Part shown: piece after piece, positions 691 through 51,743 of the stretch
Numbering within the stretch: the stretch's first letter is position 1
Layout: every line of letters starts with the position of its first letter
Translations under genes and position numbers: made by a program
The notes under the pieces: model-generated
Told to the model about the DNA's origin: nothing
Databases searched by the model: none
What the model saw: only the letters and a program-made list of their open reading frames with translations
NCBI GenBank assembly: GCA_964387845.1
Contig: CAYLXA010000002.1
Location: 32,001 to 96,000 of the forward strand
Direction: 5' to 3'
DNA length: 64,000 nt
DNA from: an uncultured bacterium
Lineage (GTDB): Bacteria > Omnitrophota > Omnitrophia > Omnitrophales > Abzuiibacteriaceae

Positions 691-1395
691 ATGAAAATCA
701 CCCTCCTGATTATGACCTGGAACGAAATCGATGGAATGCGTGTGATCATGCCTCAGATCAAGAAAGAGTGGTATGACCAGCTCATCGTGGTTGATGGCGG
801 GTCGACGGACGGAACAATTGAATACGCAAAAGAATGTGGTTACGAAGTATATGTACAGAAACAAAAAGGGTTTCGGCACGCGTATACGGAAGTGATGCCT
901 TATGTTAAAGGTGATGTCATTGTTACTTTTAGCCCGGACGGTAATTCAATTGCCGAGCTGATTCCGGAGCTTAATAAAAAAATGCGCGAAGGCTACGATA
1001 TGGTCATCGTTTCGCGGTATTTGGGGAAAGCAAAAAGCAAGGATGATGATTTGGTGACGGGATTTGGCAATCGGTTATTTACAGGAACCGTAAATTTGCT
1101 TCATGGCGGGCATTATACGGATGCCATGGTGATCTTTCGCGCTTACCGGAAACAGATCGTTTACGATTTAGATTTAGACAAAGAAGAAAGCTATTCGTTT
1201 CCGGAAAAATTATTCAACACCAAAATCAGCTGGGAGCCGCTTTTGTCTGTTCGCGCTGCGAAGCGTAAATTAAAGGTCTCAGAAATTCCGGGCGACGAGC
1301 CGCCGCGAATCGGCGGCGAGAGAAAACTACAAGTACTTAAGTGGGGCGCGGCCTACTATTACCAATTCATCAGCGAAGTGTTTTGTTGGCGTTAA
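691..1395 (+). CDS. family-2 glycosyltransferase (Dpm1-like, soluble)
   Basis: 234-aa ORF. N-terminal GT2 signature (LLIMTWNE…LIVVDGGSTDGT). The size and motif fit a polyprenyl-phosphate sugar synthase-type GT2. Confidence 0.75.
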   Translation: MKITLLIMTWNEIDGMRVIMPQIKKEWYDQLIVVDGGSTDGTIEYAKECGYEVYVQKQKGFRHAYTEVMPYVKGDVIVTFSPDGNSIAELIPELNKKMREGYDMVIVSRYLGKAKSKDDDLVTGFGNRLFTGTVNLLHGGHYTDAMVIFRAYRKQIVYDLDLDKEESYSFPEKLFNTKISWEPLLSVRAAKRKLKVSEIPGDEPPRIGGERKLQVLKWGAAYYYQFISEVFCWR

Positions 1396-1419
1396 ATTAA
1401 CATTGAAGAAAGGAAAAGA

Positions 1420-2355
1420 ATGGCAAAAATCTTGGTAACCGGAGGAGCAGGGTATATCGGATCTGTTTTAGTGCCTACGCTTCTCAAAGAAAAGCATGAA
1501 GTAACCGTGCTTGATAATCTCATGTACCAGCAATCCTCGCTGTTGGATGTTTGTTACGATTCTAATCTCACGGTAGTGCGCGGAGATGCCCGCGATGAAA
1601 AACTGATCGCAGGTCTGGTCAAAACCGTCGATTATATTTTCCCGCTCGCATGTTTGACGGGAGCGCCCCTTTGCGACAAAGATCCTTTCGCGGCCAAAGA
1701 AGTGAACTTAGATGCTATTTTGTTAATTTTAAAACACCGCAGTAAGAATCAGCGCGTAATCTATCCGACGACCAACAGCGGCTACGGAATCGGCCAAAAA
1801 GGAATCCATTGCGATGAAAAAACGCCGCTCAATCCGATTTCGCTCTATGGCAAATTAAAAGTTGAGGCTGAAAAGGCGATTTTGGATTCCGGAAATGCGG
1901 TTACCTTTCGTCTCGCAACGGCGTTCGGCATCAGTCCGCGGATGCGGCTTGATTTGTTGGTGAACGATTTTGTCTACCGAGCGATTAATGACCGTGCTGT
2001 GATTCTTTTTGAAAGTCATTTCAAGCGTAACTATGTCCACGTTCGCGATATTTCGCGAGCATTTGTGCATGCGGTGAATCATTTCGATAAAATGAAAAAC
2101 GAACCGTACAATGTCGGTTTAAGCGACTGCAATTTAAGCAAAAAAGAATTGTGCGATGAAATCAAAAAGCAGGTTCCCAAATTTTATTATGTTGAGTCGG
2201 CAATTGGCGAAGACCCGGATAAACGCGATTACATCGTGAGCAACGAAAAAATCGAGAAAACAGGGTTCAAAACCGAGCATCCGTTGACGGTTGGGATACG
2301 AGAGCTGATCAAGGGGTATCAAGTTATCAAACGGAGTCAATACGGAAACGTTTAA
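1420..2355 (+). CDS. NAD-dependent sugar epimerase/dehydratase (extended SDR)
   Basis: TGGAGYIGS Rossmann motif at the N-terminus. YGKLK matches the YxxxK catalytic motif. Confidence 0.8.
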   Translation: MAKILVTGGAGYIGSVLVPTLLKEKHEVTVLDNLMYQQSSLLDVCYDSNLTVVRGDARDEKLIAGLVKTVDYIFPLACLTGAPLCDKDPFAAKEVNLDAILLILKHRSKNQRVIYPTTNSGYGIGQKGIHCDEKTPLNPISLYGKLKVEAEKAILDSGNAVTFRLATAFGISPRMRLDLLVNDFVYRAINDRAVILFESHFKRNYVHVRDISRAFVHAVNHFDKMKNEPYNVGLSDCNLSKKELCDEIKKQVPKFYYVESAIGEDPDKRDYIVSNEKIEKTGFKTEHPLTVGIRELIKGYQVIKRSQYGNV

Positions 2356-3348
2356 ATGGCGAAATCAACTTCACCAAAAAATAAAGAAATTCTAATCTCG
2401 CTTTATAAAGCGATGCTGAAAATCCGCCGTGCGGAGGAAAAAGTGGCGGAACTTTATCCGTCCGACAAAATCCAAAGCCCGATTCATCTATGCATCGGAC
2501 AGGAGGCTATTTCAGCGGGCGTTTGCCTTGCCATGAAACAGTCAGATCATCTTTATGGAACTTATCGCGGCCACGGTGTTTATTTGGCAAAGGGCGGCAG
2601 CATGAAACAAATGTTTGCCGAGTTGTATGCGAAAGACACGGGTTGTGCGGGCGGTCGCGGCGGCTCCATGCATTTGATTGCGCCCGAAGTTGGCTTGATG
2701 GGATGTTCAGCGATTGTGGCCAGTACGATTCCGCTGGCGGTGGGCGATGCGCTTGCCACAAAGATGCGGAAGAAAAATGATGTAACCGTGACTTTTTTTG
2801 GCGACGGTGCTATCGGCGAAGGCGTTTTCTTTGAAAGTTTGAATTTCGCGGCGTTGAAAAAGCTGCCCGTGGTCTTTGTCTGTGAAAATAACAATTACGC
2901 GGTTCATTCGCGCGTCTCAGACCGCCATAAACAAACCGATCTTTATAAGTACGCGCAGCCTTTCGGAGTTCCGTCTAAACGTTTAGATGGCAATGATGCC
3001 TTGTTAGTTTATGAATCAATGTCGGATGCGATTGCAAAAGCACGGAAGGGCAGCGGTCCTATCTTTATTGAATATATGACCTACCGCATTTATGAACATG
3101 TGGGCCCGTCCAAGGATCATAAAGAGGTGTACCGCGAGACAAAAAAGTTAAAAAATGCCGAAAAAAACGATCCTGTCATTCGATTGGGAAAAGAGCTGCG
3201 TCAAAAATACAAGATTCCTGAATCTGTATTTGCTGAATGGGAATCTGAATTACAGAAAGAGGTCGAGAGCGCGGTCCAGTTCGCAGAAAAAAGTCCGGAG
3301 CCCCCAGCTAGCCGTTTGTACGAGCACATCTATTTGGAGAGATCATGA
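2356..3348 (+). CDS. thiamine-diphosphate-dependent dehydrogenase E1 component, alpha subunit (PDH/acetoin-DH E1alpha-like)
   Basis: YRGHG…GGRGGSMH…FFGDGA…ENNNYA motifs typical of E1 alpha subunits. Start abuts the previous stop. Confidence 0.8.
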   Translation: MAKSTSPKNKEILISLYKAMLKIRRAEEKVAELYPSDKIQSPIHLCIGQEAISAGVCLAMKQSDHLYGTYRGHGVYLAKGGSMKQMFAELYAKDTGCAGGRGGSMHLIAPEVGLMGCSAIVASTIPLAVGDALATKMRKKNDVTVTFFGDGAIGEGVFFESLNFAALKKLPVVFVCENNNYAVHSRVSDRHKQTDLYKYAQPFGVPSKRLDGNDALLVYESMSDAIAKARKGSGPIFIEYMTYRIYEHVGPSKDHKEVYRETKKLKNAEKNDPVIRLGKELRQKYKIPESVFAEWESELQKEVESAVQFAEKSPEPPASRLYEHIYLERS

Positions 3349-4376
3349 GCATTATCAGCTACGGCGAAGCCAATAAACAGGCGCTGACACTGGCGATGGA
3401 ACGCGACCCGAGCGTTTTCTTGATGGGAATCGGTGTAGATGACCACAAGGCCATTTTCGGTAGCGTGCGCGGCATGGTCGAACAGTTCGGCAAAGAGCGT
3501 ATTTTTGATACGCCGATTGCGGAGAGCGGGATGACGGGAATCGCGATTGGCGCCGCGCTAAACGGTATGCGGCCTGTCCATATTCATATCCGCGCCGACT
3601 TTTTATATTTGGCGATGGACCAGCTTTTTAATATTGCAGCGAAGTGGCATGCGATGTTTGGCGGAAAAATGAGCGTTCCGATTGTGATTCGCGCCGTGAT
3701 CGGCCGCAGCTGGGGGCAGGGTGCGCAGCATTCCCAAAGCCCTCAGGCCATGATTGCCCACGTTCCGGGTATTAAATTAGTAATGCCGACCACAGCGTAT
3801 GACGTGAAGGGCTTGCTGCTCAAAGCAATTACCGATCCAAATCCGGTGGTGATGATTGAACATCGCCTGCTTTACGACATTAAAGGAGAGGTGCCGGATG
3901 GTTATTATGAAATTCCATTCGGAAAGGGTGTTGTAAGACGAACCGGAAAGGATGTTACGATTGTCGCAACTTCCTATATGGTTGTTGAGGCATTGAAAGC
4001 TGCCGAATTTTTAACGAATCAGGGAATTGAGGTCGAGATCATTGACCCGCTTACACTGGTTCCGCTGGATGAAGAATTGATTCTGCGATCAGTTCAAAAA
4101 ACCGGCAGAATGCTGGTTGCGGATACCGGCTGGACCAATTGTGGCGTGAGCGCTGAAATTTCCGCGCGTGTTGCAGATCTCGGTTTTTCGTCACTCAAAG
4201 GCCCGATTCGCCGGCTCGGCATGGCGCCCACTGCTTGTCCGGTCAGCAAAGCCCTTGAAAACGCCTTTTATCCAAACGCTAAAACGATTGTCCAGCAAGT
4301 TTGCGAAATGTTGGGCGAGGCGGTTCCAAATGTAGAAGTCCCGCTTTTGGAAAGCAAATTCAAAGGGCCGTTTTAA
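3345..4376 (+). CDS. E1 component beta subunit (transketolase-like)
   Basis: 343-aa ORF. Overlaps the alpha gene by 4 nt, suggesting translational coupling. Transketolase-like Pyr and C-terminal domains characteristic of E1 beta. Confidence 0.8.
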   Translation: MSIISYGEANKQALTLAMERDPSVFLMGIGVDDHKAIFGSVRGMVEQFGKERIFDTPIAESGMTGIAIGAALNGMRPVHIHIRADFLYLAMDQLFNIAAKWHAMFGGKMSVPIVIRAVIGRSWGQGAQHSQSPQAMIAHVPGIKLVMPTTAYDVKGLLLKAITDPNPVVMIEHRLLYDIKGEVPDGYYEIPFGKGVVRRTGKDVTIVATSYMVVEALKAAEFLTNQGIEVEIIDPLTLVPLDEELILRSVQKTGRMLVADTGWTNCGVSAEISARVADLGFSSLKGPIRRLGMAPTACPVSKALENAFYPNAKTIVQQVCEMLGEAVPNVEVPLLESKFKGPF

Positions 4377-5560
4377 TGATTAAATATCATTTAGCTAAAG
4401 ACACAATTGATGAAAAAGATATTCAGGCACTGATTGAGTGGCTTAAATCCTACCCACGGCTCACGAAAGCAAATCTCACGCTTCAATTTGAAGAGCGGTG
4501 GAGCAAATGGCTTGGAAAGAAATATTCAACCTTCTGCAATTCCGGCTCATCCGCAAATTTGTTGATGTATTACGCGCTGCTAAGTTCCAAAAAGCTTAAA
4601 AATAAAAAAGTCGTCGTACCGACTGTTGGATGGGTGACCACCATTGCGCCTGCCATTCAATTCGGCTTTGAGCCGATCATGTGTGAAGCTGATCCCGACA
4701 CTTTTGGCCTTGATTTGGGTCATCTGGAAAAACTTCTCAAGAAGCACAATCCCGGCACGGTAGTGTTGGTACAGGTGCTCGGCGTTCCTCATAAAATGGA
4801 CGAAATTTTGGCGCTTAAGAAAAAATACGACTTCTATTTGTTGGAAGATGCCTGCGCTTCAATCGGTTCCACATATCACGGTAAAAAAATTGGGCAGTTC
4901 GGTGATATGGCAAGCTTTTCGTTCTATTTTGGACATCAAATGTCAACCATCGAAGGCGGTATGGTATCGACGGACAATAAAGAGTTTCAGGATTTATTAT
5001 TGATGCTTCGAAGCCATGGCTGGAGCAAGGATTTAGACGCAAAGACTCATGATGCGCTCGTTGAGCAATATAAAATTGATGACTTTCATACGCCCTTTGT
5101 TTTTTATGAGCCGGGGTTCAATTTGCGCTCAACCGACCTCAACGCATTTCTGGGGCTTCGGCAATTGGACAAGCTCGATTGGATGATTTCGCGGCGTGAT
5201 GAAAATCATAAGCTCTATTATAAACTCTTGGCAAATCAGTTTTACGCTCAGAAATATGCGGATCCAAAAGCAAATGTTTCAAGTATCTCATTTGGTGCTT
5301 TGGCCGCTGATCCGGAAGAGCGGCGCAAGGTCGTGAAGGCTTTGGTGCAGAACGGGATTGAAACCCGGATTTTTTCGGCAGGAAATCTAGGTTTGCATCC
5401 GTTTTGGTATAACCGATACGGAAAAGCGAGCTTTCCGGTTGCCGATAAAGTACACCATTGCGGATTTTTCCTTCCAAATCATCCGTCGCTTGCGACGAAA
5501 GATGTTGAATTTGTGGCGCAGGTAACCTTGGATGCGGTATGCACGGGAAAATCCTCGTAA
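4376..5560 (+). CDS. DegT/ColD/E1-family PMP-dependent sugar 3-dehydratase, with His replacing the catalytic Lys
   Basis: DegT-fold ORF. The ATG at 4376 overlaps the upstream TAA (TAATG); the track's longer start at 4301 is unlikely. The conserved SFYFGHQMSTIEGG segment has His where aminotransferases carry the Schiff-base Lys. The 394-aa size matches ColD-type dehydratases. Confidence 0.65.
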   Translation: MIKYHLAKDTIDEKDIQALIEWLKSYPRLTKANLTLQFEERWSKWLGKKYSTFCNSGSSANLLMYYALLSSKKLKNKKVVVPTVGWVTTIAPAIQFGFEPIMCEADPDTFGLDLGHLEKLLKKHNPGTVVLVQVLGVPHKMDEILALKKKYDFYLLEDACASIGSTYHGKKIGQFGDMASFSFYFGHQMSTIEGGMVSTDNKEFQDLLLMLRSHGWSKDLDAKTHDALVEQYKIDDFHTPFVFYEPGFNLRSTDLNAFLGLRQLDKLDWMISRRDENHKLYYKLLANQFYAQKYADPKANVSSISFGALAADPEERRKVVKALVQNGIETRIFSAGNLGLHPFWYNRYGKASFPVADKVHHCGFFLPNHPSLATKDVEFVAQVTLDAVCTGKSS

Positions 5561-6468
5561 CCGGCGGCACAGGTCTTTTGGGATCAGCGCTTCAAAAGCA
5601 GTGTCCGGATGCGGTTTATGTTGGAAGTAAAGATTATGACTTGAGACGGTTTGATGAGGCTGAGAGGATGTTTGGCGAAATAAAACCAACCCGCGTGATT
5701 CATCTTGCGGCCAATGTGGGTGGGGTGAAGAAAAACGCGGAGCAAAATGCCACACTTTTCTCGGACAATGTTTTAATCAACACCAATGTGATTGAGGCTG
5801 CAATTCAAGGCGGTGTTAAGCGGTTGATTTCAATTTTATCCAGCTGTTGTTTTAAAATTTATCCGGACAAGCCGTCAACAGAGAGCGATTTGCATGAAGG
5901 TGCGCCGTTTGCCGGCAATTTGGGCTATGGTTATGCAAAGCGAATGCTGGACATCCATAGCCGCTTAGCGTGGGAGCAGCATCGGCTGCAGTTTTCATCG
6001 ATCACTCCAGCGACAATGTATGGGCTTAACGATAACTGGGATCTAGAAAGCGGACATGTGGTGGCTGCGTTAATCCGCCGGACGTTTATAGCGAAAGAAA
6101 GGGGCGAGCCGTTGACTGTTTGGGGAAGTGGAAATGCTGTCCGCCAATTTGTCTTAGCAGATGATGTCGCGAGGCTGCTTTTAGAGGAGATTGATACGTT
6201 TGATGGCCCCGACAATATGATCGTAGCACCGGATTCGGGTGTCTCGATACGCGATTTAACAAGCATGATCGCGGAGCTGATGAATTTTAAAGGAGAAATT
6301 ATTTTTGACCAGTCGAAACCGGAGGGACAATTAAAGAGAGTGTTGATCAGTGAGAAATTTAAAAAGCGGTATCCCGAATTTAGCTTTACACCGCTTCGCA
6401 GCGGCTTAAAAATGACCATTGATTGGTTTCTCAAAAACTATAAAACAGCAAGGGTTTTGAAGGTGTGA
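5539..6468 (+). CDS. GDP-L-fucose synthase-like 3,5-epimerase/4-reductase (SDR)
   Basis: LVTGGTGLLGSAL Rossmann motif. SSCCFKIYP and GYGYAK motifs parallel Fcl SSCIYP / YAIAK. Confidence 0.7.
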   Translation: MHGKILVTGGTGLLGSALQKQCPDAVYVGSKDYDLRRFDEAERMFGEIKPTRVIHLAANVGGVKKNAEQNATLFSDNVLINTNVIEAAIQGGVKRLISILSSCCFKIYPDKPSTESDLHEGAPFAGNLGYGYAKRMLDIHSRLAWEQHRLQFSSITPATMYGLNDNWDLESGHVVAALIRRTFIAKERGEPLTVWGSGNAVRQFVLADDVARLLLEEIDTFDGPDNMIVAPDSGVSIRDLTSMIAELMNFKGEIIFDQSKPEGQLKRVLISEKFKKRYPEFSFTPLRSGLKMTIDWFLKNYKTARVLKV

Positions 6469-6469
6469 C

Positions 6470-7516
6470 ATGATTATTAGCCGAACCCCTTTTCGTGTTT
6501 CTTTTTTAGGCGGCGGAACCGATTACCCCGGTTGGTACCGTGAGCATGGCGGAGCCGTGTTGGCGACAACCATTGATAAGTACTGCTATATTACTTGCCG
6601 CTATCTACCCCCATTTTTTGAGCATAAAAGCCGCATCATGTATTCCAAAATCGAGTGCGTTCAGTCCAATAAAGACATCGAACATCCCTCTGTGCGGGAA
6701 ACTTTGAAATATATGAATATCCAAGAGGGGATTGAGATTCATCACGACGGCGATTTGCCTGCCCGCGCCGGTTTGGGATCAAGCTCTGCTTTTACAGTGG
6801 GATTATTGAACGCGCTTTATGGCCTTAAGCGTAAAATGTCGTCTAAAGAAGATTTGGCAAAGGAAGCGATTCATGTGGAAAGAGATCTCCTGAGCGAGAA
6901 TGTGGGATCTCAAGATCAGGTACAGTCGTCGTTTGGCGGTTTGAATCACATTGAATTCCTCAAAAACGGACAATTTAACGTTTTTCCGATTGTTTTGAAG
7001 CATGAGCGCCTTCAAAGTTTTCAAGATCATCTTTTGCTGTATTTTACGGGTTTCTCGCGTTTTGCTTCAGACATTGCAAAAGAGCAAATTGATTCGATTG
7101 CGAAAAAACAAAATGAGCTTAAAGCGATGGGGCAAATGGTTGGTGAAGGCCTCAAGATTCTTACGGGTGACGCAAGCTTGTTGGAATTTGGAAAATTGCT
7201 GCATGAAAGCTGGACATTGAAGCGGAATTTGACTAACCGGATTTCAACACCTGCCATTGATCAAATTTATGAAGAAGCGCGGAGGGCAGGCGCCGTGGGC
7301 GGAAAGCTGCTCGGGGCCGGCGGGGGCGGTTTCGTTCTTTTGCTGGTTGAGCCCGGTAAACAGCAAAAAGTAAAGGATGTGCTGCAAAAATTATTGCTGG
7401 TCCCGTTTCAATTCGAAAACACGGGAACGCAGGTTGTTTTTTACCGCCCTCCCAAGGAAAGTACCGAAATGAGTTGGTTTAAGTTCCAAAAGGAGCGGGA
7501 AGCTTCGCAAAAGTGA
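6470..7516 (+). CDS. GHMP-family sugar kinase, D-glycero-D-manno-heptose 7-phosphate kinase (HddA)-like
   Basis: N-terminus PFRVSFLGGGTDYP plus GHMP ATP-binding motif GLGSSSA. The C-terminal GGKLLGAGGGGF segment is HddA/fucokinase-like. Confidence 0.7.
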   Translation: MIISRTPFRVSFLGGGTDYPGWYREHGGAVLATTIDKYCYITCRYLPPFFEHKSRIMYSKIECVQSNKDIEHPSVRETLKYMNIQEGIEIHHDGDLPARAGLGSSSAFTVGLLNALYGLKRKMSSKEDLAKEAIHVERDLLSENVGSQDQVQSSFGGLNHIEFLKNGQFNVFPIVLKHERLQSFQDHLLLYFTGFSRFASDIAKEQIDSIAKKQNELKAMGQMVGEGLKILTGDASLLEFGKLLHESWTLKRNLTNRISTPAIDQIYEEARRAGAVGGKLLGAGGGGFVLLLVEPGKQQKVKDVLQKLLLVPFQFENTGTQVVFYRPPKESTEMSWFKFQKEREASQK

Positions 7517-8238
7517 ACAAACGCCTGACCGATCCAGCACACATTGACGTGTTAATTATTTGCGGAGGGCTGGGGACGCGCCTCCGTTCTGTCGAGCCCG
7601 ATGCGCCCAAAGGCATGGTTGTTATTGAAGGAAAACCGTTTCTTGAAATTCTGATTGATCATTTGCGTCATTCCGGTTTTCGGCGTTTTATTCTCTGCAC
7701 CGGTTACGGCGCCAAACGTTTTCGGCAGCATTTTGAAGCGGCCAAACAGTCAGAAATTATATTTTCCGAAGAAGTAAAGCCGCTGGGCACGGCCGGAGCT
7801 GTCAAGCAAGCCGAAAAACTCATAAGCAGCGATCAGCAGTTGGTGTTAAATGGCGATTCTTTGTGCTTGGCGGATTGGCAGGAGCTATTACGCTTTCATG
7901 CATCGCATCAGGGGTTGGCAACGCTTTTGGTAACTCAGGACCGAGAGCGAACGGATGTGGGCGGAATCAAGTTTGATCACAACTTCGGCGTAACGCAATT
8001 TAAAGAAAAGGAAAAAGAATCGACCCCATATATTAATGCGGGTATTTATATTTTTGAGCGCCGGTTATTGGAATTGATTCCGAAAAATCAAAAAATTTCT
8101 TTGGAGGAACAAATTTTTCCAAAGCTGAACGAAACCCAACTGTTTGCTTGCGTATCATTAGCAACTGTGTATGATATTGGAACGCCCGAACGTTTAGAGA
8201 AATTTAAACAACTTTATTCTGCAGGAAAATTCAATTAA
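7513..8238 (+). CDS. sugar-phosphate nucleotidyltransferase, heptose-1-P guanylyltransferase (HddC)-like
   Basis: GTG start. LIICGGLGTRLRS…PK motif of NDP-sugar pyrophosphorylases. Overlaps the kinase by 4 nt. Confidence 0.7.
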   Translation: MNKRLTDPAHIDVLIICGGLGTRLRSVEPDAPKGMVVIEGKPFLEILIDHLRHSGFRRFILCTGYGAKRFRQHFEAAKQSEIIFSEEVKPLGTAGAVKQAEKLISSDQQLVLNGDSLCLADWQELLRFHASHQGLATLLVTQDRERTDVGGIKFDHNFGVTQFKEKEKESTPYINAGIYIFERRLLELIPKNQKISLEEQIFPKLNETQLFACVSLATVYDIGTPERLEKFKQLYSAGKFN

Positions 8239-8243
8239 ACGAT

Positions 8244-9794
8244 ATGGTTAATACAAAAAATAAACTTGATGTCTTGCTCATTAATCCTGGCAATTTGATC
8301 CAGGTTTACCAAACGCTGGGACTCAATATTTCTGCTATCGAGCCGCCGGTTTGGTCCGGGTTGATGGCCACTTTCGTTCGGCGCAAAGGCTGTTCCGTTC
8401 AAATTCTGGATGCTAACGCCGAGAATCTGACCCCTGCTCAAACTGCGCAAAAAGCGCTTGAGTTGAAGCCGCTTCTGATCGCTGTTGTTGTTTACGGACA
8501 TCAACCGTCGGCTTCGACGCAAATTATGCCGGCGGCAAGTTCAATTTGCTCCGCGATTAAGGCGCAAGACCCAAGCCAAAAGGTGTTTTTGGTTGGCGGG
8601 CATGTCTCGGCGCTGCCTGATCGGACGCTGAGCGAGGAAAGTGCAGATTTTGTGTCGAGCGGCGAGGGGCCGCACACGCTTTTAGAGTTAATTGAGGCGC
8701 TGAAAGCCGGCGGCTCCGAAAATTTAAAGAAGGTTCGCGGATTACTTTATAAAGAAAACGGGAAAATTCAGTTCAACGCACCGGCACCACTCGTCAAAAA
8801 CTTGGATGAAGAAATGCCTGAAATGGCCTGGGATCTTTTGCCTATGGAAAAATACCGGGCGCACAACTGGCATTGTTTCGGTCATTTAGATAAACGCGCG
8901 CCTTATGCTTCGTTTTATACCACGCTCGGGTGTCCGTATCACTGCACTTTTTGTTGTATTCAGTCGCCTTACAAAACCGGAGAAAAAGAGTCTGGTTTGA
9001 AGGAGGAGATTAACAGCTATCGCTTCTGGAATCCCAAAACGGTTGTCGATCAAATCGGAAAATTAGTCAACGAATACGGAGTCCGCAATATTAAGATCGC
9101 AGACGAGATGTTTGTTCTCAATGCGCGTCATGTATTTGGTATTTGCGATTTGATCATTGAGCGCGGTTATGATTTGAATATTTGGGCGTATGCACGCATT
9201 GACACAATTAAGGACAATATGCTGGACAAATTAAAGCGTGCGGGTGTGAACTGGCTCGCGTTTGGCATCGAGTCGGGTAGCGAGCGTGTCCGAGATAATG
9301 TGGACAAAGCGTTTGACCAAGAGGACATTCGCAAAGTAATTCAAAAAGTGAAAGATGCTGGTATTAACATCATCGGAAATTATATCTTCGGGCTACCGGA
9401 AGATGATATGAATTCAATGAAAGCCACTCTGGATTTAGCGCTCGAACTTAATTGCGAATTTACCAACTTTTATTGCGCGATGGCGTATCCCGGGTCTCCT
9501 TTGTATCAGCAGGCTATCCGTGAAAAATGGGCATTACCAAAAGCCTGGAGCGGTTATTCTCAGCATTCGGTCGATATGCTTCCGCTTGCCACAAAACACC
9601 TCCCGGCTTCTGACGTTATTCGGTTTAGAGACCAGGCATTTGAGGTTTATTTTAAATCACCTAAATATTTAGAGATGGTGCGCCAAAAATTCGGCGAAGA
9701 AACTTTAAAACATATCCAGGCAATGCTTTCACATCAGCTTAAACGACAATTCGTTTCTTCAAGCACGTCAAAAACCTCATCGCAAAAGAGTTGA
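8244..9794 (+). CDS. B12-binding (class B) radical SAM enzyme
   Basis: N-terminal cobalamin-binding Rossmann-like domain. CPYHCTFC gives a CX3CX2C radical SAM motif. 516 aa. Confidence 0.75.
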   Translation: MVNTKNKLDVLLINPGNLIQVYQTLGLNISAIEPPVWSGLMATFVRRKGCSVQILDANAENLTPAQTAQKALELKPLLIAVVVYGHQPSASTQIMPAASSICSAIKAQDPSQKVFLVGGHVSALPDRTLSEESADFVSSGEGPHTLLELIEALKAGGSENLKKVRGLLYKENGKIQFNAPAPLVKNLDEEMPEMAWDLLPMEKYRAHNWHCFGHLDKRAPYASFYTTLGCPYHCTFCCIQSPYKTGEKESGLKEEINSYRFWNPKTVVDQIGKLVNEYGVRNIKIADEMFVLNARHVFGICDLIIERGYDLNIWAYARIDTIKDNMLDKLKRAGVNWLAFGIESGSERVRDNVDKAFDQEDIRKVIQKVKDAGINIIGNYIFGLPEDDMNSMKATLDLALELNCEFTNFYCAMAYPGSPLYQQAIREKWALPKAWSGYSQHSVDMLPLATKHLPASDVIRFRDQAFEVYFKSPKYLEMVRQKFGEETLKHIQAMLSHQLKRQFVSSSTSKTSSQKS

Positions 9795-10978
9795 CTCAGT
9801 CGCGATCAACGCAGAAGCAATGGATAGTTATCGGCGGCGGCATTATTGGCACCGCGGTTGCCCTGGCTCTTGCTAAGCGCAAAGCTGGCTCAATCTTAAT
9901 TCTAGAGAAAGAATCTTCGCTCGGGCTTCATCAAAGCGGTCGCAACAGCGGTGTCATTCATTCCGGGATTAATCAAAAACCCGGAAGTTTGAAAGCAAAA
10001 ATGTGCGTTGAGGGCAGCCGGCGCTTGCGAGAATATTGCAGACAGCGGCGGATTGTGATGAATGAATGTGGGACTTTAGTGATTGCGCGTCATGCCGAAG
10101 AGCTGGCAACCCTAGACCGTCTTTTAAAAATGGGTGTCGAGTGCGGCGTTGAGGGGTTGATGTTAATCGGCCGCGATGAATTGATTGAGCGGGAACCGAT
10201 TGCCAAAGGCGATAGTGCTCTTCTGTCTCCCTCAGGCGCAACCGTTGATTCTGAAATGCTCCTCAAATCTCTTGCGCAAGATGCGCGCGAGGTCGGTGTT
10301 GAGTATAAAATGGTCCATCGCGTTTTAAAAATCGAAGGAAATACGGTCTATACCAACCAAGGGAGTTTCAACGCCGAATACATCATTAATTGTGCGGGGC
10401 TTTATGCAGATGAAATTGCGCATATGATGAACGCAGGGAGAGGTTATCGGATTATTCCATTTCGCGGCGAGTATATGGAAGTCAAAAATTGCGATGTGAA
10501 ATCAATGGTTTATCAGGCTCCTGATCTCCGGTTTCCGTTTTTGAGCATTCATTTAACCCGGGAAACGGACGGAAGAGTGCTTGCCGGGCCTAGCGCAGTT
10601 TTGGCGTTTGGCAGGGAAGCATATGAGAAGGAATGGGATTGGCGTGAAATGGGCCGCATGTTTACTAGTATGCAATTTTTACGGATGGTTATCAGACCAG
10701 AGTTTGTGCAGCTAGCTTCCGAGAATTTGAAAACATCGCTATCAGCAAATAGTTTTTTGGAGCAGATTCAGTCTCTGGTTGCAGGTGTAACGCAAGAACA
10801 GATTGTGCCGCATCGGGCCGGAATCCGAGCTCAGATGGTGGATCAAAGCGGTAAATTGGTTGATGATATTTTGGTGGAACATCAACCGTCGGCAACGCAT
10901 GTGCTGAATGCAGTATCTCCCGGAATGACGTGCAGTCTGGCATTTGCAGACTATTTAGCGGGGCAAATTTTAAATTAG
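9791..10978 (+). CDS. FAD-dependent oxidoreductase (L-2-hydroxyglutarate oxidase LhgO-like)
   Basis: TTG start overlapping the previous stop. The WIVIGGGIIGTAVA dinucleotide-binding motif immediately follows. LhgO/DAO-family architecture. Confidence 0.7.
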   Translation: MTQSRSTQKQWIVIGGGIIGTAVALALAKRKAGSILILEKESSLGLHQSGRNSGVIHSGINQKPGSLKAKMCVEGSRRLREYCRQRRIVMNECGTLVIARHAEELATLDRLLKMGVECGVEGLMLIGRDELIEREPIAKGDSALLSPSGATVDSEMLLKSLAQDAREVGVEYKMVHRVLKIEGNTVYTNQGSFNAEYIINCAGLYADEIAHMMNAGRGYRIIPFRGEYMEVKNCDVKSMVYQAPDLRFPFLSIHLTRETDGRVLAGPSAVLAFGREAYEKEWDWREMGRMFTSMQFLRMVIRPEFVQLASENLKTSLSANSFLEQIQSLVAGVTQEQIVPHRAGIRAQMVDQSGKLVDDILVEHQPSATHVLNAVSPGMTCSLAFADYLAGQILN

Positions 10979-11002
10979 TGAGATAGTTAACGAGTGGCTT
11001 GT

Positions 11003-11968
11003 ATGAAAAAAATTTTAATCTGCGGCGGAACTGGTTTTATCGGCAGGAATTTGGTTGAGTATTTTGTCAAAAAACCAGATTTTGAAGTTTACGCAACTTG
11101 TTACAAGCGTCGTTCTCCCTTAATTCCAAAGGCTAAATTTAAGCGTATTGATTTAACAAATGTTGTGCAAGTTCAAGAAATTGTGAAGGGGATGGATGTT
11201 GTGGTTCAAGCCGCTGCCACAACCTCCGGCGTAAAGGATACGATTGAGGCGCCTTATGTGCACGTTACAGATAACGCCGTAATGAACTCCTTGATTTTTC
11301 GAGCGTGTTTCGAGCAAAAGGTGAAACACGTGATCTTTTTAAGCTGTACCGTGATGTATCCGAATCAGGAGGCGCCAGTTTCGGAAGAAGATATGAATTA
11401 TCAAATTACGGATAATTATTTTGGTGTCGGTTGGACAAAAGTTTACCTCGAGAAAATGAGCCAATTTTATTCGCGAATCGGAAGTGCTAAATATACCGCG
11501 ATTCGGCATTCCAATATTTACGGCCCTTATGATAAGTATGATCTTGAAAAATCACACGTTTTTGGCGCAACGGTTGCGAAAGTTGAAACTGCCAAGGACG
11601 GCAAAGTTGTGGTCTGGGGCACGGGCGCCCAAGAGCGCGATCTTTTATATGTGGATGACCTGTCCCGGTTTATTGATTTGGCAATTGAAAAGCAAACTGA
11701 AAAGTTTGAGCTGGTTAATGTTGGTTACGGAAAAAGCATTTCAATTGCTAATCTGGTCCAGTTGATTATTGACCGCTCCAAAAAGAATTTAAAGATTGAG
11801 TATGATCATTTAAAGCCTTCGGTTAACTTCAAGTTGGTTCTGAATATCGACCGCGCAAAGCGCATTTTTGGCTGGGAGCCGCAGGTGCCGCTTGAAGAAG
11901 GAATTGAAAGGAGTCTTGCGTGGTATCGAAAACATATTCAACCAATGTCTGCCGAAAAGATTAAATGA
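11003..11968 (+). CDS. NAD-dependent epimerase/reductase (second Fcl-like SDR)
   Basis: ICGGTGFIGRNL motif. An LSCTVMYP segment lies where Fcl has SSCIYP. The alternative start is 10994. Confidence 0.7.
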   Translation: MKKILICGGTGFIGRNLVEYFVKKPDFEVYATCYKRRSPLIPKAKFKRIDLTNVVQVQEIVKGMDVVVQAAATTSGVKDTIEAPYVHVTDNAVMNSLIFRACFEQKVKHVIFLSCTVMYPNQEAPVSEEDMNYQITDNYFGVGWTKVYLEKMSQFYSRIGSAKYTAIRHSNIYGPYDKYDLEKSHVFGATVAKVETAKDGKVVVWGTGAQERDLLYVDDLSRFIDLAIEKQTEKFELVNVGYGKSISIANLVQLIIDRSKKNLKIEYDHLKPSVNFKLVLNIDRAKRIFGWEPQVPLEEGIERSLAWYRKHIQPMSAEKIK

Positions 11969-14019
11969 AAAGCAAATTAATTTGCGCTGCCGTATTAGTG
12001 GCGCTGATTGTGATTTCATTTTACACCTACCGCTCCGGTGTCATTTCCGTGCCTCGCTCCGATCACTATGGGTTTATGGCGGAGAGGGAATACGCAGTTT
12101 CGGATACCGAGTTTTTGTTGAAGCAGTTGGTCTATAACCGGACCCGCGTCATCGCAAAGGGTGATTCTTTTTTGTTCAGGCCCGGAATGACCGGCACGCT
12201 CGCGCTTTTGGATATTTTTTTTCGGCATAATTTGTATGCGCTTGGCGCTTTCAGTATCCTCGCGCATGCTTTGACGGCTTTTTCATTGTTCTTATTGCTG
12301 AGTTTGTTTTTAAGGCGCTCTTTTGCGTTTATCCTATCCGTTGTATTTGCCACGCATCTGGCAGGTTTTGAAATGGTTTTTTGGCGCCATATCAGTCCTT
12401 ACATGTTTTGCCTGGTTTTTGTAGGATTGGCATTGTACGCGCTTGGCCGCTGGCTTCAGCCGCCCGAAAATCGAAATTGGCTTTTATTATTTTCATTCTG
12501 CCTTTTTTTATCTTCACTATTTCACGAAGTTGTTTTGCCGGCGATGGTTATCTTCTGTCTTTTATTTTTAGTTCTGCATTTTCAAAATCAATCAACGAAT
12601 CCATCTTATTTTAAATCATTGTCAATCGCGTGCCTGGTCCCGCTGGCTGCTAATTTGCTGCTCAACGTCGCTGGCCGGATCGCTTTTAGCAGCCAGGCCA
12701 ACCTGTTATTGAGTGATGCGGCGCAACCGGCAAGCGTTGCTTACGCCTCAAAATTTTTAAGCCACGCGGTTTACGTCGGGGGCCTGATTATCACTGCCTT
12801 TTTGGCGCCGAGCATCATTCGTTTCTCATTTATTAATTTGGATTTTCGGGCGGAGTGGGACTTTCTCAAAATTCCAGCGCCTGTTTTTTACACCGCCGGT
12901 TTTATTTTTCTTACATTGATCGCAGGGGCGTTAATTTATCTATATATTTTCAGAAAAAAGCTCGGTCAGCGACAGCTTTTTCCGATTTTTGCATTCGCGG
13001 GAATATTTTTGATTGTCACTTTTTTGGGACTAACGGTCGGGAGGGCCATTCCGCGCTCAATCGGTTATTTGAAAAACTCCACCTATTATTTCTATCTAAC
13101 CAATTACGCCCTTACAATCATCGTTGCTATGGGCTTGAGAAAAATCAGCAGCTTACCGTATAAAAATTTAAAAATCGGATTAGTGTTTTTCCTGCTCTGT
13201 GTTGCCGGTTATCAGATTAAAAGCGGTATTGCGGGAATCGAAAAGGCAATCAATGCTCGAGGTGATTACGATAAACAAATCGCTTCCAAAACACTCCGGG
13301 TTTGGTCAGAATTAAGCAAGCATCCGGAATATTGCTATGGTGGGACCGGGGCCGAAAGAGTTTCAAGCTTTGTGCCCAATGTTCTGCTGTACCGAAGGTC
13401 ATGCAATGCTTTCCCGGACAAAATCCCGCTCTATTTGCTCGAAAACGAAAAACGCGAACTTTGGTTTATGCAGTTGATTCCTGAGCAGATTGATCAGCAG
13501 GCCTATCGTTATGGGCAGATCAATAATGAGGGGCAAGCCGAGTTTTCCGCTCAATCAACCGATAACCAGCTCAGTTTTAGCGGTTTTTCTCTTAGCAATG
13601 CCGTCCATCATCCTATTTATTACGGCGCCCGGCTTCATGGGGGATTTGTCGGAGGTTTGGTATTTAACTATCACGACCCCGCCAATTTTTCAATCTTAGT
13701 GGCAAATGAACGTTACACTTATGTGCAATTTAACGAGAATGGAAACCCCTCGGAACCGTCGTATGTGGCGCAGCAGATTTTAGATCCGATCGCTTTTGAT
13801 TTGTCGATTCGGAGAATCGGCGGCAGGTATGTTGTATTCTATAACCGGACTTTGCTTGCAGTGATCAATGATGCTGTTTCCGAGGGACGAGTGGGGCTTT
13901 ATCGGAAGCCCCGTCATTCAGCAGGCGAGTATTTTACCGACGTGGTCTTGATTGATGCTTCAGAGGCCAAACAATCGCAGATGGGTGCTTTTGAACCTGT
14001 TTTTCAATTTCAATTTTAG
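11965..14019 (+). CDS. large polytopic membrane protein with a ~250-aa C-terminal soluble beta-rich domain (GT-C-like?)
   Basis: 684 aa. About 10 predicted TM segments in the first ~430 aa, then a hydrophilic C-terminal domain. 4-nt overlap with the upstream gene. Confidence 0.6.
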   Translation: MKSKLICAAVLVALIVISFYTYRSGVISVPRSDHYGFMAEREYAVSDTEFLLKQLVYNRTRVIAKGDSFLFRPGMTGTLALLDIFFRHNLYALGAFSILAHALTAFSLFLLLSLFLRRSFAFILSVVFATHLAGFEMVFWRHISPYMFCLVFVGLALYALGRWLQPPENRNWLLLFSFCLFLSSLFHEVVLPAMVIFCLLFLVLHFQNQSTNPSYFKSLSIACLVPLAANLLLNVAGRIAFSSQANLLLSDAAQPASVAYASKFLSHAVYVGGLIITAFLAPSIIRFSFINLDFRAEWDFLKIPAPVFYTAGFIFLTLIAGALIYLYIFRKKLGQRQLFPIFAFAGIFLIVTFLGLTVGRAIPRSIGYLKNSTYYFYLTNYALTIIVAMGLRKISSLPYKNLKIGLVFFLLCVAGYQIKSGIAGIEKAINARGDYDKQIASKTLRVWSELSKHPEYCYGGTGAERVSSFVPNVLLYRRSCNAFPDKIPLYLLENEKRELWFMQLIPEQIDQQAYRYGQINNEGQAEFSAQSTDNQLSFSGFSLSNAVHHPIYYGARLHGGFVGGLVFNYHDPANFSILVANERYTYVQFNENGNPSEPSYVAQQILDPIAFDLSIRRIGGRYVVFYNRTLLAVINDAVSEGRVGLYRKPRHSAGEYFTDVVLIDASEAKQSQMGAFEPVFQFQF

Positions 14020-14043
14020 TTATGCGGTAGTGAGGTGTGTGTG

Positions 14044-16031: not shown

Positions 16032-17042
16032 ATGATTCAAATCGGTGTAATCGGATGCGGGCAATGGGGGCCTAACCATATCCGCAATTTTACCAACTTA
16101 GAAGATAGCCGCGTGGCTGCCTGTTCCGATTTAGACTCAGTACGTTTAACCGCCATGTCAAAGCTTGTGAAGGGTATTGAAACCACGCGGAATTACCGAG
16201 ACATTCTCCACAACCCGCGCATTGACGCAGTGGTGATCTCCACTCCGGCTGCGCTTCATTACAAGATTGCGAAAGAAAGCCTATTAGCGGGCAAGGACGT
16301 GCTCTGCGAAAAACCGCTTTGCACCAAAGTTAGCGATGCGATCAAGCTGACGGAGCTTGCAAAAAAGCTCAAAAGAGTGTTGATGGTCGGGCATGTTTTT
16401 GTATTCAATCCGGGTATCCGAAAGTTAAAAGAACTGATTCAGAAGAAAAAATGCGGGCGCGTATATTATTTACATTCTGAACGGACCAACCTTGGGCCGT
16501 TCCGGCGCGATGTGAATGCAGTGTGGGATTTGGCCTGCCACGACGTTTATATTTTTAATTACTTACTGAATAGTTTTCCGATCGAGGTTACCGCGCGCGG
16601 AGGAAAGTATCTTCAGAGCAAAATCGAAGACGTTGCCTTTATATCGATGACTTATCCGAGCGGTGTTTTGGTGAACATCCATGTCAGCTGGCTGGATCCC
16701 AAAAAAATCAGGCAAATTACCGTCGTTGGAAATAAATCCATGATTACCTGGGATGATTTGGACAATGTCGGCCCGATTAAAATTTACGATAGCCAGGTTG
16801 TGCACAAGTATTACTACGAAACTTTCGGTGAATTTGCGCTGTTGGCGAGGGAAGGTGATATCACGATTCCTAAAATCGCGCTGCAGGAACCTTTAAAGAT
16901 CCAAGATTCCCATTTTTTGGAATGCGTTCAGAAAAGAAAGCAGCCCGCGGCGGATGGTGTTGCCGGTATCCAAACGGTAAAGGTGCTTACGGCCATTCAG
17001 AAATCTCTGGCAAAGCGGGGCAATCCGGTACGCGTCGGATGA
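16032..17042 (+). CDS. Gfo/Idh/MocA-family NAD(P)-dependent sugar oxidoreductase
   Basis: IGVIGCGQWGPNH Rossmann N-terminus. EKP motif (CEKPL). 336 aa. Confidence 0.8.
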   Translation: MIQIGVIGCGQWGPNHIRNFTNLEDSRVAACSDLDSVRLTAMSKLVKGIETTRNYRDILHNPRIDAVVISTPAALHYKIAKESLLAGKDVLCEKPLCTKVSDAIKLTELAKKLKRVLMVGHVFVFNPGIRKLKELIQKKKCGRVYYLHSERTNLGPFRRDVNAVWDLACHDVYIFNYLLNSFPIEVTARGGKYLQSKIEDVAFISMTYPSGVLVNIHVSWLDPKKIRQITVVGNKSMITWDDLDNVGPIKIYDSQVVHKYYYETFGEFALLAREGDITIPKIALQEPLKIQDSHFLECVQKRKQPAADGVAGIQTVKVLTAIQKSLAKRGNPVRVG

Positions 17043-21954: not shown

Positions 21955-21973
21955 TTATCGCTAGGGCTTCACC

Positions 21974-26956: not shown

Positions 26957-26963
26957 CTAGGGA

Positions 26964-37488: not shown

Positions 37489-37561
37489 GCCCATGTAGCT
37501 CAGCTGGTAGAGCGGCGCTTTCGTAAAGCGTAGGTCGTCAGTTCAATCCTGACCGTGGGCT
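37489..37561 (+). tRNA. tRNA-Thr (anticodon CGU)
   Basis: 73-nt cloverleaf by eye: 7-bp acceptor stem GCCCATG/CGTGGGC, D-arm GCTC/GAGC, anticodon stem GCGCT/AGCGT with loop TTCGTAA, T-arm GTCAG-TTCAATC-CTGAC. Starts 1 nt after the hldD stop. Confidence 0.85.
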
Positions 37562-37564
37562 GTT

Positions 37565-48495: not shown

Positions 48496-48515
48496 TTCGT
48501 GATGAGTTGTTATTT

Positions 48516-49496: not shown

Positions 49497-49497
49497 C

Positions 49498-50394: not shown

Positions 50395-50395
50395 G

Positions 50396-51727: not shown

Positions 51728-51743
51728 AAATTGGGGGAAGTGT

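Follow-up and report, generated by a model that had tools for sequence, protein, structure and literature searches.

An Omnitrophota operon that probably builds a 3-deoxy sugar from GDP-heptose, adds carbon to it, and delivers it through a lipid carrier

We analyzed a 64-kb window of DNA from an uncultured bacterium of the phylum Omnitrophota (family Abzuiibacteriaceae; assembly GCA_964387845.1, contig CAYLXA010000002.1, positions 32,001 to 96,000) and focused on a compact set of sugar biosynthesis genes at window positions 691 to 11968. The original prediction for this stretch counted 12 genes, but its own list totals 11, and 11 open reading frames (ORFs) are present, all on the forward strand. 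Every domain that it named was confirmed by Pfam: a short family 2 glycosyltransferase (GT2), three extended short-chain dehydrogenases/reductases (SDRs), the alpha and beta subunits of an E1 enzyme of the pyruvate dehydrogenase (PDH) type, a DegT protein, a GHMP kinase, a nucleotidyltransferase, a B12-binding radical S-adenosylmethionine (SAM) enzyme, and a DAO flavoprotein. The gene junctions range from −22 to +24 nucleotides (nt), with overlaps of 4 nt at four junctions and 1 nt at one, and this spacing and the stop/start overlaps argue for cotranscription, as had been supposed. The gene set extends past position 11968, where an ORF at 11965 to 14019 overlaps the last SDR gene by 4 nt, and same-strand genes run on to 23875. 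The region from 691 onward is one operon, which reaches at least two membrane glycosyltransferases. We conclude that this operon probably builds a GDP-activated 3-deoxy sugar from a heptose, adds carbon to it, and hands it to lipid-carrier glycosylation.

The gene grouping recurs in many lineages. In a scan with one genome per species, the radical SAM protein gave at least 571 confirmed matches with 60 to 68% identity, and the best 80 of these matches span more than 10 phyla. Homologues occur in cyanobacteria, Acidobacteriota, Planctomycetota, Verrucomicrobiota, Chloroflexota, Omnitrophota, Elusimicrobiota, Binatia, and others, and close relatives with about 65 to 68% identity include proteins from Dehalococcoidales, Binatia, cyanobacteria, and Acidobacteria. 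ORFs were called in the related loci and each was assigned to the window protein that it matched best; the 39 loci in which 8 kb or more of sequence flanks the radical SAM homologue on each side, all from other species, are called full loci. The DegT gene is present in 37 of the 39 full loci, the kinase in 35 (53 to 66% identity), E1 beta in 33, an SDR resembling GDP-L-fucose synthase (Fcl) in 28, E1 alpha in 27, homologues of the SDR at 1420 to 2355 in 26 (at least 45% identity), and the nucleotidyltransferase in 23. The usual order begins with an SDR resembling Campylobacter Cj1427, followed by the nucleotidyltransferase, GmhB, GmhA, a NUDIX protein, and the GHMP kinase, and continues with the Fcl-like SDR, E1 alpha, E1 beta, DegT, the radical SAM enzyme, and often the short GT2. 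The conserved core consists of the B12 radical SAM enzyme, a two-subunit thiamine enzyme, the dehydratase, the Fcl-like SDR, and the heptose kinase, and its recurrence across loci indicates that the grouping did not arise by chance. The closest relative, locus L087, has a radical SAM protein 80% identical to that of the window and shares the gene order of the window, with the flavin adenine dinucleotide (FAD) enzyme gene straight after the radical SAM gene.

There is hardly any room for the view that the E1 pair, the flavoprotein, and the radical SAM enzyme have their roles in central metabolism or some other unrelated process and came to adjoin a sugar operon by chance. Such a view could draw on the scores of the E1 subunits, which come near those of housekeeping PDH (330 bits for E1 alpha, with a cut-off of 394 for the PDH E1 alpha model; 317 bits for E1 beta, with a cut-off of 321 for the PDH E1 beta model), and on the fact that the L-2-hydroxyglutarate oxidase LhgO, to whose family the flavoprotein belongs, is a common metabolic enzyme. 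However, the synteny holds over more than 10 phyla, stop and start codons overlap in the operon, and no E2 or E3 partner gene was found among the annotated window ORFs scanned, i.e., those before position 54533. Further, an LhgO-like gene is present in 6 of the 39 full loci, far above the approximately 0.2 expected (Poisson p of about 8e-8), although this expectation is a rough one that assumes one such gene per genome.

A search of a plasmid collection for the cassette gave matches only in Azospirillum, Solidesulfovibrio, Streptomyces, and Skermanella. In one cultured bacterium, Solidesulfovibrio magneticus RS-1, the full cassette sits on plasmid pDMC1 (NC_012797, 22514 to 38996; locus L085). 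The pDMC1 cluster starts with a short GT2 (62% identical to that of the window), a second GT2, the radical SAM enzyme, a NUDIX protein, the kinase, E1 alpha, and E1 beta, and goes on with the Fcl-like SDR, DegT, a Cj1427-like SDR (56%), the nucleotidyltransferase, and a "phospholipid carrier-dependent glycosyltransferase," ending with a gene annotated in RefSeq as lhgO. The plasmid is 58.7 kb long, and its cassette is flanked by IS66 and other transposases, hinting at horizontal mobility.

Activation of the sugar would be carried out by the kinase at 6470 to 7516 and the nucleotidyltransferase at 7513 to 8238. The kinase had been proposed to be an HddA-like heptose 7-phosphate 1-kinase, and this assignment withstood comparison with fucokinases: HddA is the best of all NCBIfam models (145 bits; cut-off, 600), fucokinase scores 88 bits, and the top PDB matches are the heptose kinases 3K85, 4USK, and 4N3O. 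Likewise, the best solved relative of the nucleotidyltransferase is the Yersinia guanylyltransferase HddC (6JQ8/5XHW; 7e-34), in keeping with the proposed HddC-like role, while NCBIfam gives a tie in which the mannose-1-phosphate guanylyltransferase model (147 bits; cut-off, 440) and HddC (129 bits; cut-off, 300) both remain below their cut-offs. Of the 39 full loci, 9 have GmhA and GmhB as part of the cassette, and in a cyanobacterial cassette GmhB scores above its cut-off (179.6 versus 178) and GmhA just below (203.8 versus 209.45). It is very unlikely that the activated sugar is instead mannose, fucose, or another non-heptose sugar, with the remaining enzymes modifying a hexose. The slightly higher mannose score, the distance of all heptose-model scores from the equivalog cut-offs, and the absence of GmhA and GmhB from the window would all suit a hexose. 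Against it, the kinase ranks heptose kinases well above both fucokinase and galactokinase, GmhA and GmhB belong to the cassette in the loci just mentioned, the first SDR of the operon is 55% identical to a structure that we take to be a C4 dehydrogenase specific for GDP-heptose (6VO6, see below), and the operon has no 4,6-dehydratase, which a GDP-hexose route would need. GDP-heptose as the starting sugar is supported by these likenesses; in this organism, GmhA and GmhB would have to be supplied from elsewhere in the genome.

The SDR at 1420 to 2355 (SDR1) aligns with PDB entries 6VO6 and 6VO8 without gaps over residues 3 to 310 (308 residues; 386 bits; E = 1e-114; 55% identity). The file title of 6VO6 reads "putative sugar-nucleotide epimerase/dehydratase," and we take this entry to be Cj1427, the GDP-heptose C4 dehydrogenase of Campylobacter. 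On that assumption, SDR1 appears to be a close homologue of Cj1427-type C4 dehydrogenases. Cj1427 holds its NADH tightly and reoxidizes it with 2-oxoglutarate, yielding L-2-hydroxyglutarate, and in combination with a C3-dehydratase it produced GDP-D-glycero-3-deoxy-4-keto-heptose in vitro, a compound called novel by the Raushel group (PMC10680097). As the second step of the proposed pathway, after activation, SDR1 would therefore oxidize C4 of the heptose, with its bound NADH being reoxidized by 2-oxoglutarate to give L-2-hydroxyglutarate. Pfam and NCBIfam scans of the operon proteins found no 4,6-dehydratase. Given this absence and the presence of an SDR of the C4 dehydrogenase kind, a 3-deoxy sugar that keeps its 6-hydroxyl would be expected, rather than the 6-deoxy- or 3,6-dideoxy-heptoses to which the original prediction had pointed as precedent.

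The L-2-hydroxyglutarate released in this reaction may explain the flavoprotein at 9791 to 10978. The original prediction correctly listed an FAD oxidase here and recognized no pathway for it. The protein passes the L-2-hydroxyglutarate oxidase model NF008726 (359.7 bits; cut-off, 299) and is assigned to the LhgO family of DAO proteins. On the same model, scores of 400 to 611 bits are reached by flavoproteins encoded beside the cassette in loci from Verrucomicrobia, Microcoleus, Nitrospirae, and Planctomycetia. Because Cj1427 turns 2-oxoglutarate into L-2-hydroxyglutarate, the FAD enzyme probably recycles the cosubstrate of the C4 dehydrogenase, and in the third step it would return L-2-hydroxyglutarate to 2-oxoglutarate. 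The Campylobacter 3-dehydratase converts glutamate to 2-oxoglutarate (PMC10680097), so that the C4 dehydrogenase, LhgO, and the dehydratase would together form a closed loop. A literature search found no paper linking LhgO with heptose synthesis.

The DegT protein is encoded at 4376 to 5560, within a longer ORF that opens at 4301. The probable start codon is not the TTG at 4301 but the ATG at 4376, which overlaps the stop codon of E1 beta by one base: similarity to ColD sets in only at residue 26 of the longer reading frame, and the L087 orthologue has 388 amino acids. The proposal that this protein is a 3-dehydratase of the ColD/E1 type was borne out. Its best PDB match is ColD (2GMS; 1.4e-52), followed by the CDP-hexulose 3-dehydrase E1, and it has a His in the column of ColD His188, replacing the Schiff-base Lys of DegT aminotransferases. 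This column differs between wild-type 2GMS and the variant 3B8X, presumably the H188N mutant of ColD. The His is conserved in 67/67 DegT homologues from the cassettes, whereas an unrelated neighboring aminotransferase has Lys. In the fourth step, this ColD-type, pyridoxamine 5'-phosphate (PMP)-dependent dehydratase would strip the 3-hydroxyl, giving GDP-3-deoxy-4-keto-heptose.

Two Fcl-like SDRs had been predicted alongside a third SDR, and NCBIfam and PDB comparisons agree, placing them at 5539 to 6468 and at 10994 to 11968. The former, which resembles GDP-L-fucose synthase and ColC, matches human GDP-fucose synthase (4E5Y) at 1.4e-70 and has counterparts of all of the human residues S114, C116, Y143, K147, and H186; on the NCBIfam Fcl model it scores 189 bits, and the cut-off of 500 is not reached. 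These comprise the Ser/Tyr/Lys triad of the reductase and the Cys and His used in epimerization, and all 45 cassette homologues compared retain the Cys, Tyr, Lys, and His. The latter scores 145 bits on the same model (cut-off, 500) and 1e-22 against Fcl in the PDB, and it appears to be an accessory enzyme, with a homologue of at least 40% identity in only 1 of the 39 full loci. In the seventh step, the Fcl/ColC-like SDR would epimerize the sugar as a 3,5-epimerase and reduce C4, and the second Fcl-like SDR would reduce the keto group added by the thiamine enzyme. Judging from the conserved residues, the ring chemistry is predicted to be the ColD/ColC logic of colitose transferred to a heptose. 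For the early steps through 3-dehydration and for the Fcl-like SDR, the predicted roles draw on close homology, on the conservation of catalytic residues, and on synteny.

The thiamine diphosphate (ThDP) enzyme is encoded by E1 alpha at 2356 to 3348 (Pfam E1_dh, 250 bits), with a ThDP motif of the form GDG-X26-NN at residues 149 to 180, and by E1 beta at 3345 to 4376 (Transket_pyr and Transketolase_C). In having a ThDP motif, lying in a sugar cluster, and lacking E2 and E3 genes among the ORFs before 54533, the pair shows the features of the heterodimers proposed to acetyl-branch sugars. A PDH-like heterodimer of this kind, EvdU5/EvdS3, has been proposed to acetyl-branch 4-keto sugars (PMC10338323), and YerE adds a two-carbon (C2) acyl group to 3-deoxy-4-keto sugars (PMC9306805). 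The operon enzyme is a two-subunit E1 of the PDH family and does not have the single-chain, acetolactate-synthase-like ThDP/FAD architecture of the YerE type. In the fifth step, E1 alpha/beta would decarboxylate pyruvate and put the two-carbon unit on a sugar carbonyl.

Some relatives have another thiamine enzyme in place of the E1 pair. In both of the E1-lacking loci examined, L052 and L082, a split transketolase, with separate N-terminal and pyrimidine/C-terminal subunits, occupies its place (11502 to 14299 in L052; 6830 to 8745 in L082), and a further one lies at 9060 to 10822 in L086, near the minimal gene set of Azospirillum strain Az39 described below. A D-2-hydroxyacid dehydrogenase gene adjoins the split transketolase in L052, suggesting a different C2 donor, such as hydroxypyruvate. 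Counting the E1 pair and the split transketolase together, a two-subunit thiamine enzyme of one of two types accompanies most cassettes. The acceptor of the two-carbon unit may be the C4 ketone, following the logic of yersiniose and eurekanate, and we give this something close to an even chance; with less confidence, it could be a side-chain carbonyl generated by the radical SAM enzyme. The Fcl-like residues and the exchange for transketolase are easier to reconcile with a carbonyl acceptor at some position other than C4.

The radical SAM enzyme at 8244 to 9794 has an N-terminal B12-binding domain (Pfam, 52 bits) and a Radical_SAM domain (67 bits) with a CX3CX2C core at residues 230 to 237, which together place it in class B. 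Its best NCBIfam model is HpnJ (TIGR03471), with 168.6 bits against a cut-off of 577.6, followed by BchE with 142 bits, both far below the cut-off. The solved structure nearest to it is that of AprD4, which dehydrates a sugar 1,2-diol (1.4e-15; 20% identity; TM-scores of 0.67/0.76). The folds of the methyltransferases TsrM, CysS, TokK, and MgmA match nearly as well on a predicted structure of moderate confidence (pLDDT, 72), and OxsB is also matched; structure prediction and fold search do not separate the methylase, dehydratase, and cyclase subtypes. By these comparisons, the protein appears to form a class B family of its own, 60 to 68% identical across phyla and apart from known families. 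In the sixth step it would carry out one radical reaction on the heptose. Most characterized class B radical SAM enzymes are methyltransferases, and C-methylation may well be the reaction, at somewhat less than an even chance; diol dehydration is unlikely, and C-C cyclization or rearrangement slightly more so. Some relatives (L044, L045, L063, L034, and L082) have one or two extra B12-type radical SAM genes (22 to 32% identical) and a second DegT gene, and their versions of the sugar may accordingly carry more modifications.

The way in which the thiamine and radical SAM enzymes act together could follow one of several routes. In the route that follows the original prediction, the thiamine enzyme places an acetyl branch on C4, an SDR reduces it to a 1-hydroxyethyl group, and an unactivated carbon is C-methylated by the radical SAM enzyme, giving a yersiniose-type product, a 3-deoxy-4-C-branched, C-methylated heptose. 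All of the characterized or proposed thiamine enzymes that branch sugars take 4-keto NDP-sugars, often 3-deoxy ones (PMC9306805, PMC10338323), and in nearly all loci the dehydratase adjoins the E1 genes. The radical SAM fold matches TsrM, CysS, TokK, and MgmA as well as it does AprD4, and the prevalence of methylation among class B enzymes points the same way. On the other hand, the conserved Fcl-like epimerase/reductase residues (45/45) have no obvious use once C4 is quaternary, and the top radical SAM models, HpnJ and BchE, represent nonmethylating enzymes. The split transketolase that replaces E1 in some relatives also fits poorly, since transketolases add to aldehydes and are not known to add to ketones. 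In sum, we regard this route as a real but doubtful possibility.

The same residues and the same exchange of thiamine enzymes would be accommodated if carbon were added to the side chain instead. In such a chain extension, an AprD4-like radical SAM enzyme would act on the exocyclic C6-C7 diol to give a side-chain carbonyl, to which the thiamine enzyme would add two carbons from pyruvate (E1 pair) or from hydroxypyruvate or a ketose (split transketolase), and the ring would be completed in the manner of colitose, yielding a 3-deoxy-nonose that is either linear or branched at C6. Among solved structures, AprD4 comes nearest to the radical SAM enzyme by both sequence and TM-score, and the Fcl-like catalytic set, which would then have its role, is fully conserved. 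Either the E1 pair or the split transketolase can serve in a cassette, with the D-2-hydroxyacid dehydrogenase beside the transketolase in L052, and minimal Azospirillum sets hold the radical SAM enzyme and the kinase without the dehydratase. However, we know of no precedent for thiamine-dependent extension of an NDP-heptose. The likeness to AprD4 is low (20% identity; E of 1e-15), HpnJ and BchE score higher in NCBIfam, and a model with a pLDDT of 72 cannot tell the subtypes apart. On balance, chain extension seems unlikely.

A carbocycle is a third route. Here, a C4 acetyl group would be added first and an HpnJ/BchE-like cyclase would then join C7 to the acetyl carbonyl, forming a 4,8-cyclo-3,9-dideoxy-nonose of the caryose type. 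The structure of caryose (PMC9092360), the origin of which is stated to be unknown, agrees in its seven plus two carbons, in lacking the 3-hydroxyl while keeping that at C6, and in ending with a methyl group. The same review names HpnJ, PtmC, and calditol synthase as radical SAM enzymes with a proposed role in making cyclopentane sugars (PMC9092360). HpnJ and BchE are also the top-scoring models for the operon enzyme. Even so, the route is very unlikely, as it leaves the conserved Fcl-like epimerase/reductase without a role, HpnJ gives only 169 bits against a cut-off of 578, and cassettes without a thiamine enzyme exist. A link to bradyrhizose was considered as well and dropped, because its genes are reported as unknown and the sole lead is a dTDP-glucose dehydratase cluster. 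Taken together, a route to C9 or C10 sugars on GDP-heptose by radical SAM and thiamine chemistry, whether by side-chain extension or by a caryose-type ring, is a speculative proposal that we hold tentatively.

Whatever the route, the operon also provides for delivery of the sugar. The short GT2 at 691 to 1395 (234 amino acids) has no transmembrane segment, and its best NCBIfam models are AglJ (76 bits; cut-off, 325) and dolichyl-phosphate hexose transferase, both of which it misses by a wide margin. Homologues with 51 to 73% identity occur in 22 of 83 related loci, and the short GT2 is present in 9 of the 39 full loci. In sequence, it resembles the polyprenyl-phosphate glycosyltransferases DPM1 and AglJ; DPM1-type enzymes use GDP-sugars. 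The protein at 11965 to 14019 (684 amino acids) matches no Pfam or NCBIfam model and belongs to a rare family, with 13 proteins found. It has approximately 10 transmembrane segments and a C-terminal CBM66-like beta-sandwich, and a Foldseek search with its AlphaFold2 model (pLDDT, 84; pTM, 0.84) retrieved STT3/PglB/AglB, AftA, ArnT, and DPY19 (E of about 2e-5; probability, 1.0), making it a candidate membrane glycosyltransferase of the GT-C fold. The following protein, at 14035 to 15963, also has approximately 10 transmembrane segments and is a GT-C glycosyltransferase of the PMT_2 family (Pfam, 35 bits; cut-off, 26), whose donors would be sugars linked to polyprenyl phosphate. L052, L087, and pDMC1 likewise have GT-C genes beside the cassette, although these proteins are too divergent across loci for counting by BLAST. 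We infer that, in the eighth step, the short GT2 would move the sugar from GDP onto polyprenyl phosphate and the two GT-C enzymes would attach it to a periplasmic acceptor.

Several observations weigh against the pathway as we have drawn it. Among the operon proteins, only LhgO passes an NCBIfam equivalog cut-off; the others score below theirs, and their substrate assignments accordingly follow the nearest relative. The assignment of SDR1 hinges on 6VO6 being Cj1427, which the title of that entry does not state. A tblastn search of the 64-kb window found neither GmhA nor GmhB, and LhgO stands beside only a minority of cassettes. Conservation of both epimerase and reductase residues in the Fcl-like SDR implies that the C4 ketone is finally reduced, which fits a C4 acyl branch badly. 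The placement of the 684-amino-acid protein among GT-C enzymes comes with TM-scores of only about 0.35. Lastly, two Azospirillum plasmids, whose radical SAM proteins are 49 to 55% identical to that of the window, carry minimal sets without a dehydratase: A. lipoferum 4B plasmid p6 (L084) has only the radical SAM enzyme, the kinase, and the Fcl-like SDR, and A. argentinense Az39 plasmid p5 (L086) has the radical SAM enzyme, the kinase, and a Cj1427-like SDR. These sets suggest that the radical step may act on the heptose itself, independently of the other modifications. The 4B set adjoins genes for a sulfotransferase, an adenylyl-sulfate kinase, and a phosphoenolpyruvate-utilizing enzyme.

Upstream of the operon, on the reverse strand, the window begins with the N-terminal part of a polytopic membrane protein (3 to 584) that runs off its edge; its translation is hydrophobic and Pfam is blank. 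In L087, the corresponding divergent gene encodes a 523-amino-acid protein that is 55% identical to it and is followed by a PMT_2 gene; the window protein is possibly another lipid-carrier-dependent transferase. The AT-rich divergent intergenic region at 585 to 690 presumably holds the operon promoter, and no convincing sigma-70 match was seen on its forward strand. In the operon, no promoter-like or terminator-like sites rose above the expectation from shuffled sequence, and Rfam found neither a cobalamin nor a thiamine pyrophosphate (TPP) riboswitch in the window, only a tRNA-Thr.

Downstream of the two GT-C genes, further glycosylation genes follow in the same direction at 16032 to 23875 and may form more lipid-carrier glycosylation modules. 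They encode an oxidoreductase resembling GFO and UDP-GlcNAc 3-dehydrogenase, a second AglJ-like GT2, an ArnC-like GT2 (206 bits), an asparagine synthase, and a 1,074-amino-acid membrane protein in which a spermine/spermidine synthase domain is fused to TPR repeats. Convergent genes on the reverse strand at 23872 to 28415 encode a GT-C protein of the PMT/PMT_2 type, followed by proteins resembling ornithine/diaminopimelate/arginine decarboxylases and saccharopine dehydrogenase, a pair characteristic of carboxy(nor)spermidine synthesis. Further on, at 35411 to 36532 on the forward strand, is a gene resembling that of deoxyhypusine synthase, and these polyamine genes neighbor that for the spermine-synthase-domain membrane protein. 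A separate, second nucleotide-sugar cluster at 47203 to 54570 on the forward strand comprises two genes of the UDP-glucose/GDP-mannose dehydrogenase family, an RmlD-like reductase, and four epimerase/dehydratase SDRs, with a short transaldolase/FSA gene at 44099 to 44758 just upstream. The tRNA-Thr(CGT) gene (37488 to 37562, forward) abuts a sigma-54 gene (37565 to 39013, reverse), and ArgRS, MiaA, HflX, AccD, and two GGDEF proteins are encoded nearby; such housekeeping neighbors indicate that the window is ordinary chromosome.

The early enzymes of the pathway have close known counterparts in the heptose enzymes of Campylobacter jejuni, in ColD/ColC, and in LhgO, and the logic is that of deoxy- and branched-sugar pathways. 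With the capsular GDP-heptose pathways of C. jejuni, the operon shares a predicted HddA/HddC-like activation, a 3-dehydratase of the PMP/His type (the HS:5 C3-dehydratase in Campylobacter), Fcl-family reductases (C4 reductases there), and, if 6VO6 is Cj1427, the C4 dehydrogenase at 55% identity. The predicted GDP-D-glycero-3-deoxy-4-keto-heptose has been made in vitro from these enzyme types (PMC10680097). Unlike the Campylobacter pathways, the operon lacks the cupin C3/C5 epimerases and a 4,6-dehydratase; adds the thiamine enzyme, the B12 radical SAM enzyme, and LhgO; relies on GT2 and GT-C lipid-carrier delivery instead of capsule polymerization; and is hosted by environmental phyla. With GDP-colitose synthesis, in which ColD is the 3-dehydratase and ColC the 5-epimerase/4-reductase, it has in common the His of the 3-dehydratase and the full catalytic set of the Fcl/ColC-like SDR, but its substrate would be a heptose that keeps the 6-hydroxyl, entry would be through a C4 dehydrogenase and not GDP-mannose 4,6-dehydratase, and the carbon-adding enzymes are extra.

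The combination of a 3-dehydratase, a thiamine enzyme, and a reductase is shared with the pathways of yersiniose (YerE/YerF), erwiniose, caryophyllose, and the eurekanate of avilamycin and everninomicin. The avilamycin thiamine pair is named AviB1/AviB2. For eurekanate, a PDH-like heterodimer (EvdU5/EvdS3) is proposed (PMC10338323), as here, whereas YerE-type enzymes are single-chain, acetolactate-synthase-like flavoproteins that act on CDP-hexoses (PMC9306805), in contrast to the GDP-heptose scaffold of the operon. The operon further differs from these acyl-branching pathways in that a split transketolase may replace E1 among its relatives and in that its core includes a complete epimerase/reductase of the Fcl type as well as a radical SAM protein. 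With AprD4 (diol dehydratase), HpnJ (hopanoid cyclitol ether), and GenK (C-methylase), this radical SAM protein shares an N-terminal B12-binding-type domain, a CX3CX2C core, and a sugar context, yet it reaches no family cut-off. As in ArnC/ArnT, GtrB/GtrC, and DPM1/PMT, a small GT2 that resembles polyprenyl-phosphate glycosyltransferases is followed by putative GT-C membrane transferases, but here the GT2 has no membrane anchor and passes no family cut-off, and one GT-C protein comes from a rare family without a Pfam model. A full-text literature search found no paper that brings together GDP-heptose, a thiamine enzyme of two subunits, a class B radical SAM enzyme, an LhgO dedicated to the pathway, and GT2/GT-C delivery.

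If our reading of the operon is correct, thiamine and class B radical SAM chemistry on GDP-heptose would be new, as would a natural use of 3-deoxy-4-keto-heptose, which has so far been obtained only in vitro, and a dedicated L-2-hydroxyglutarate oxidase closing the 2-oxoglutarate loop of a ping-pong C4 dehydrogenase. Should the route to C9 or C10 sugars hold, an undescribed surface sugar would be common to several hundred species in more than 10 phyla, and should the product prove to be caryose-like, the biosynthetic origin of caryose would be settled. The pDMC1 cluster in the cultured S. magneticus RS-1 makes these ideas directly testable. More broadly, an abundant and chemically unusual surface sugar may be going unnoticed in environmental bacteria.

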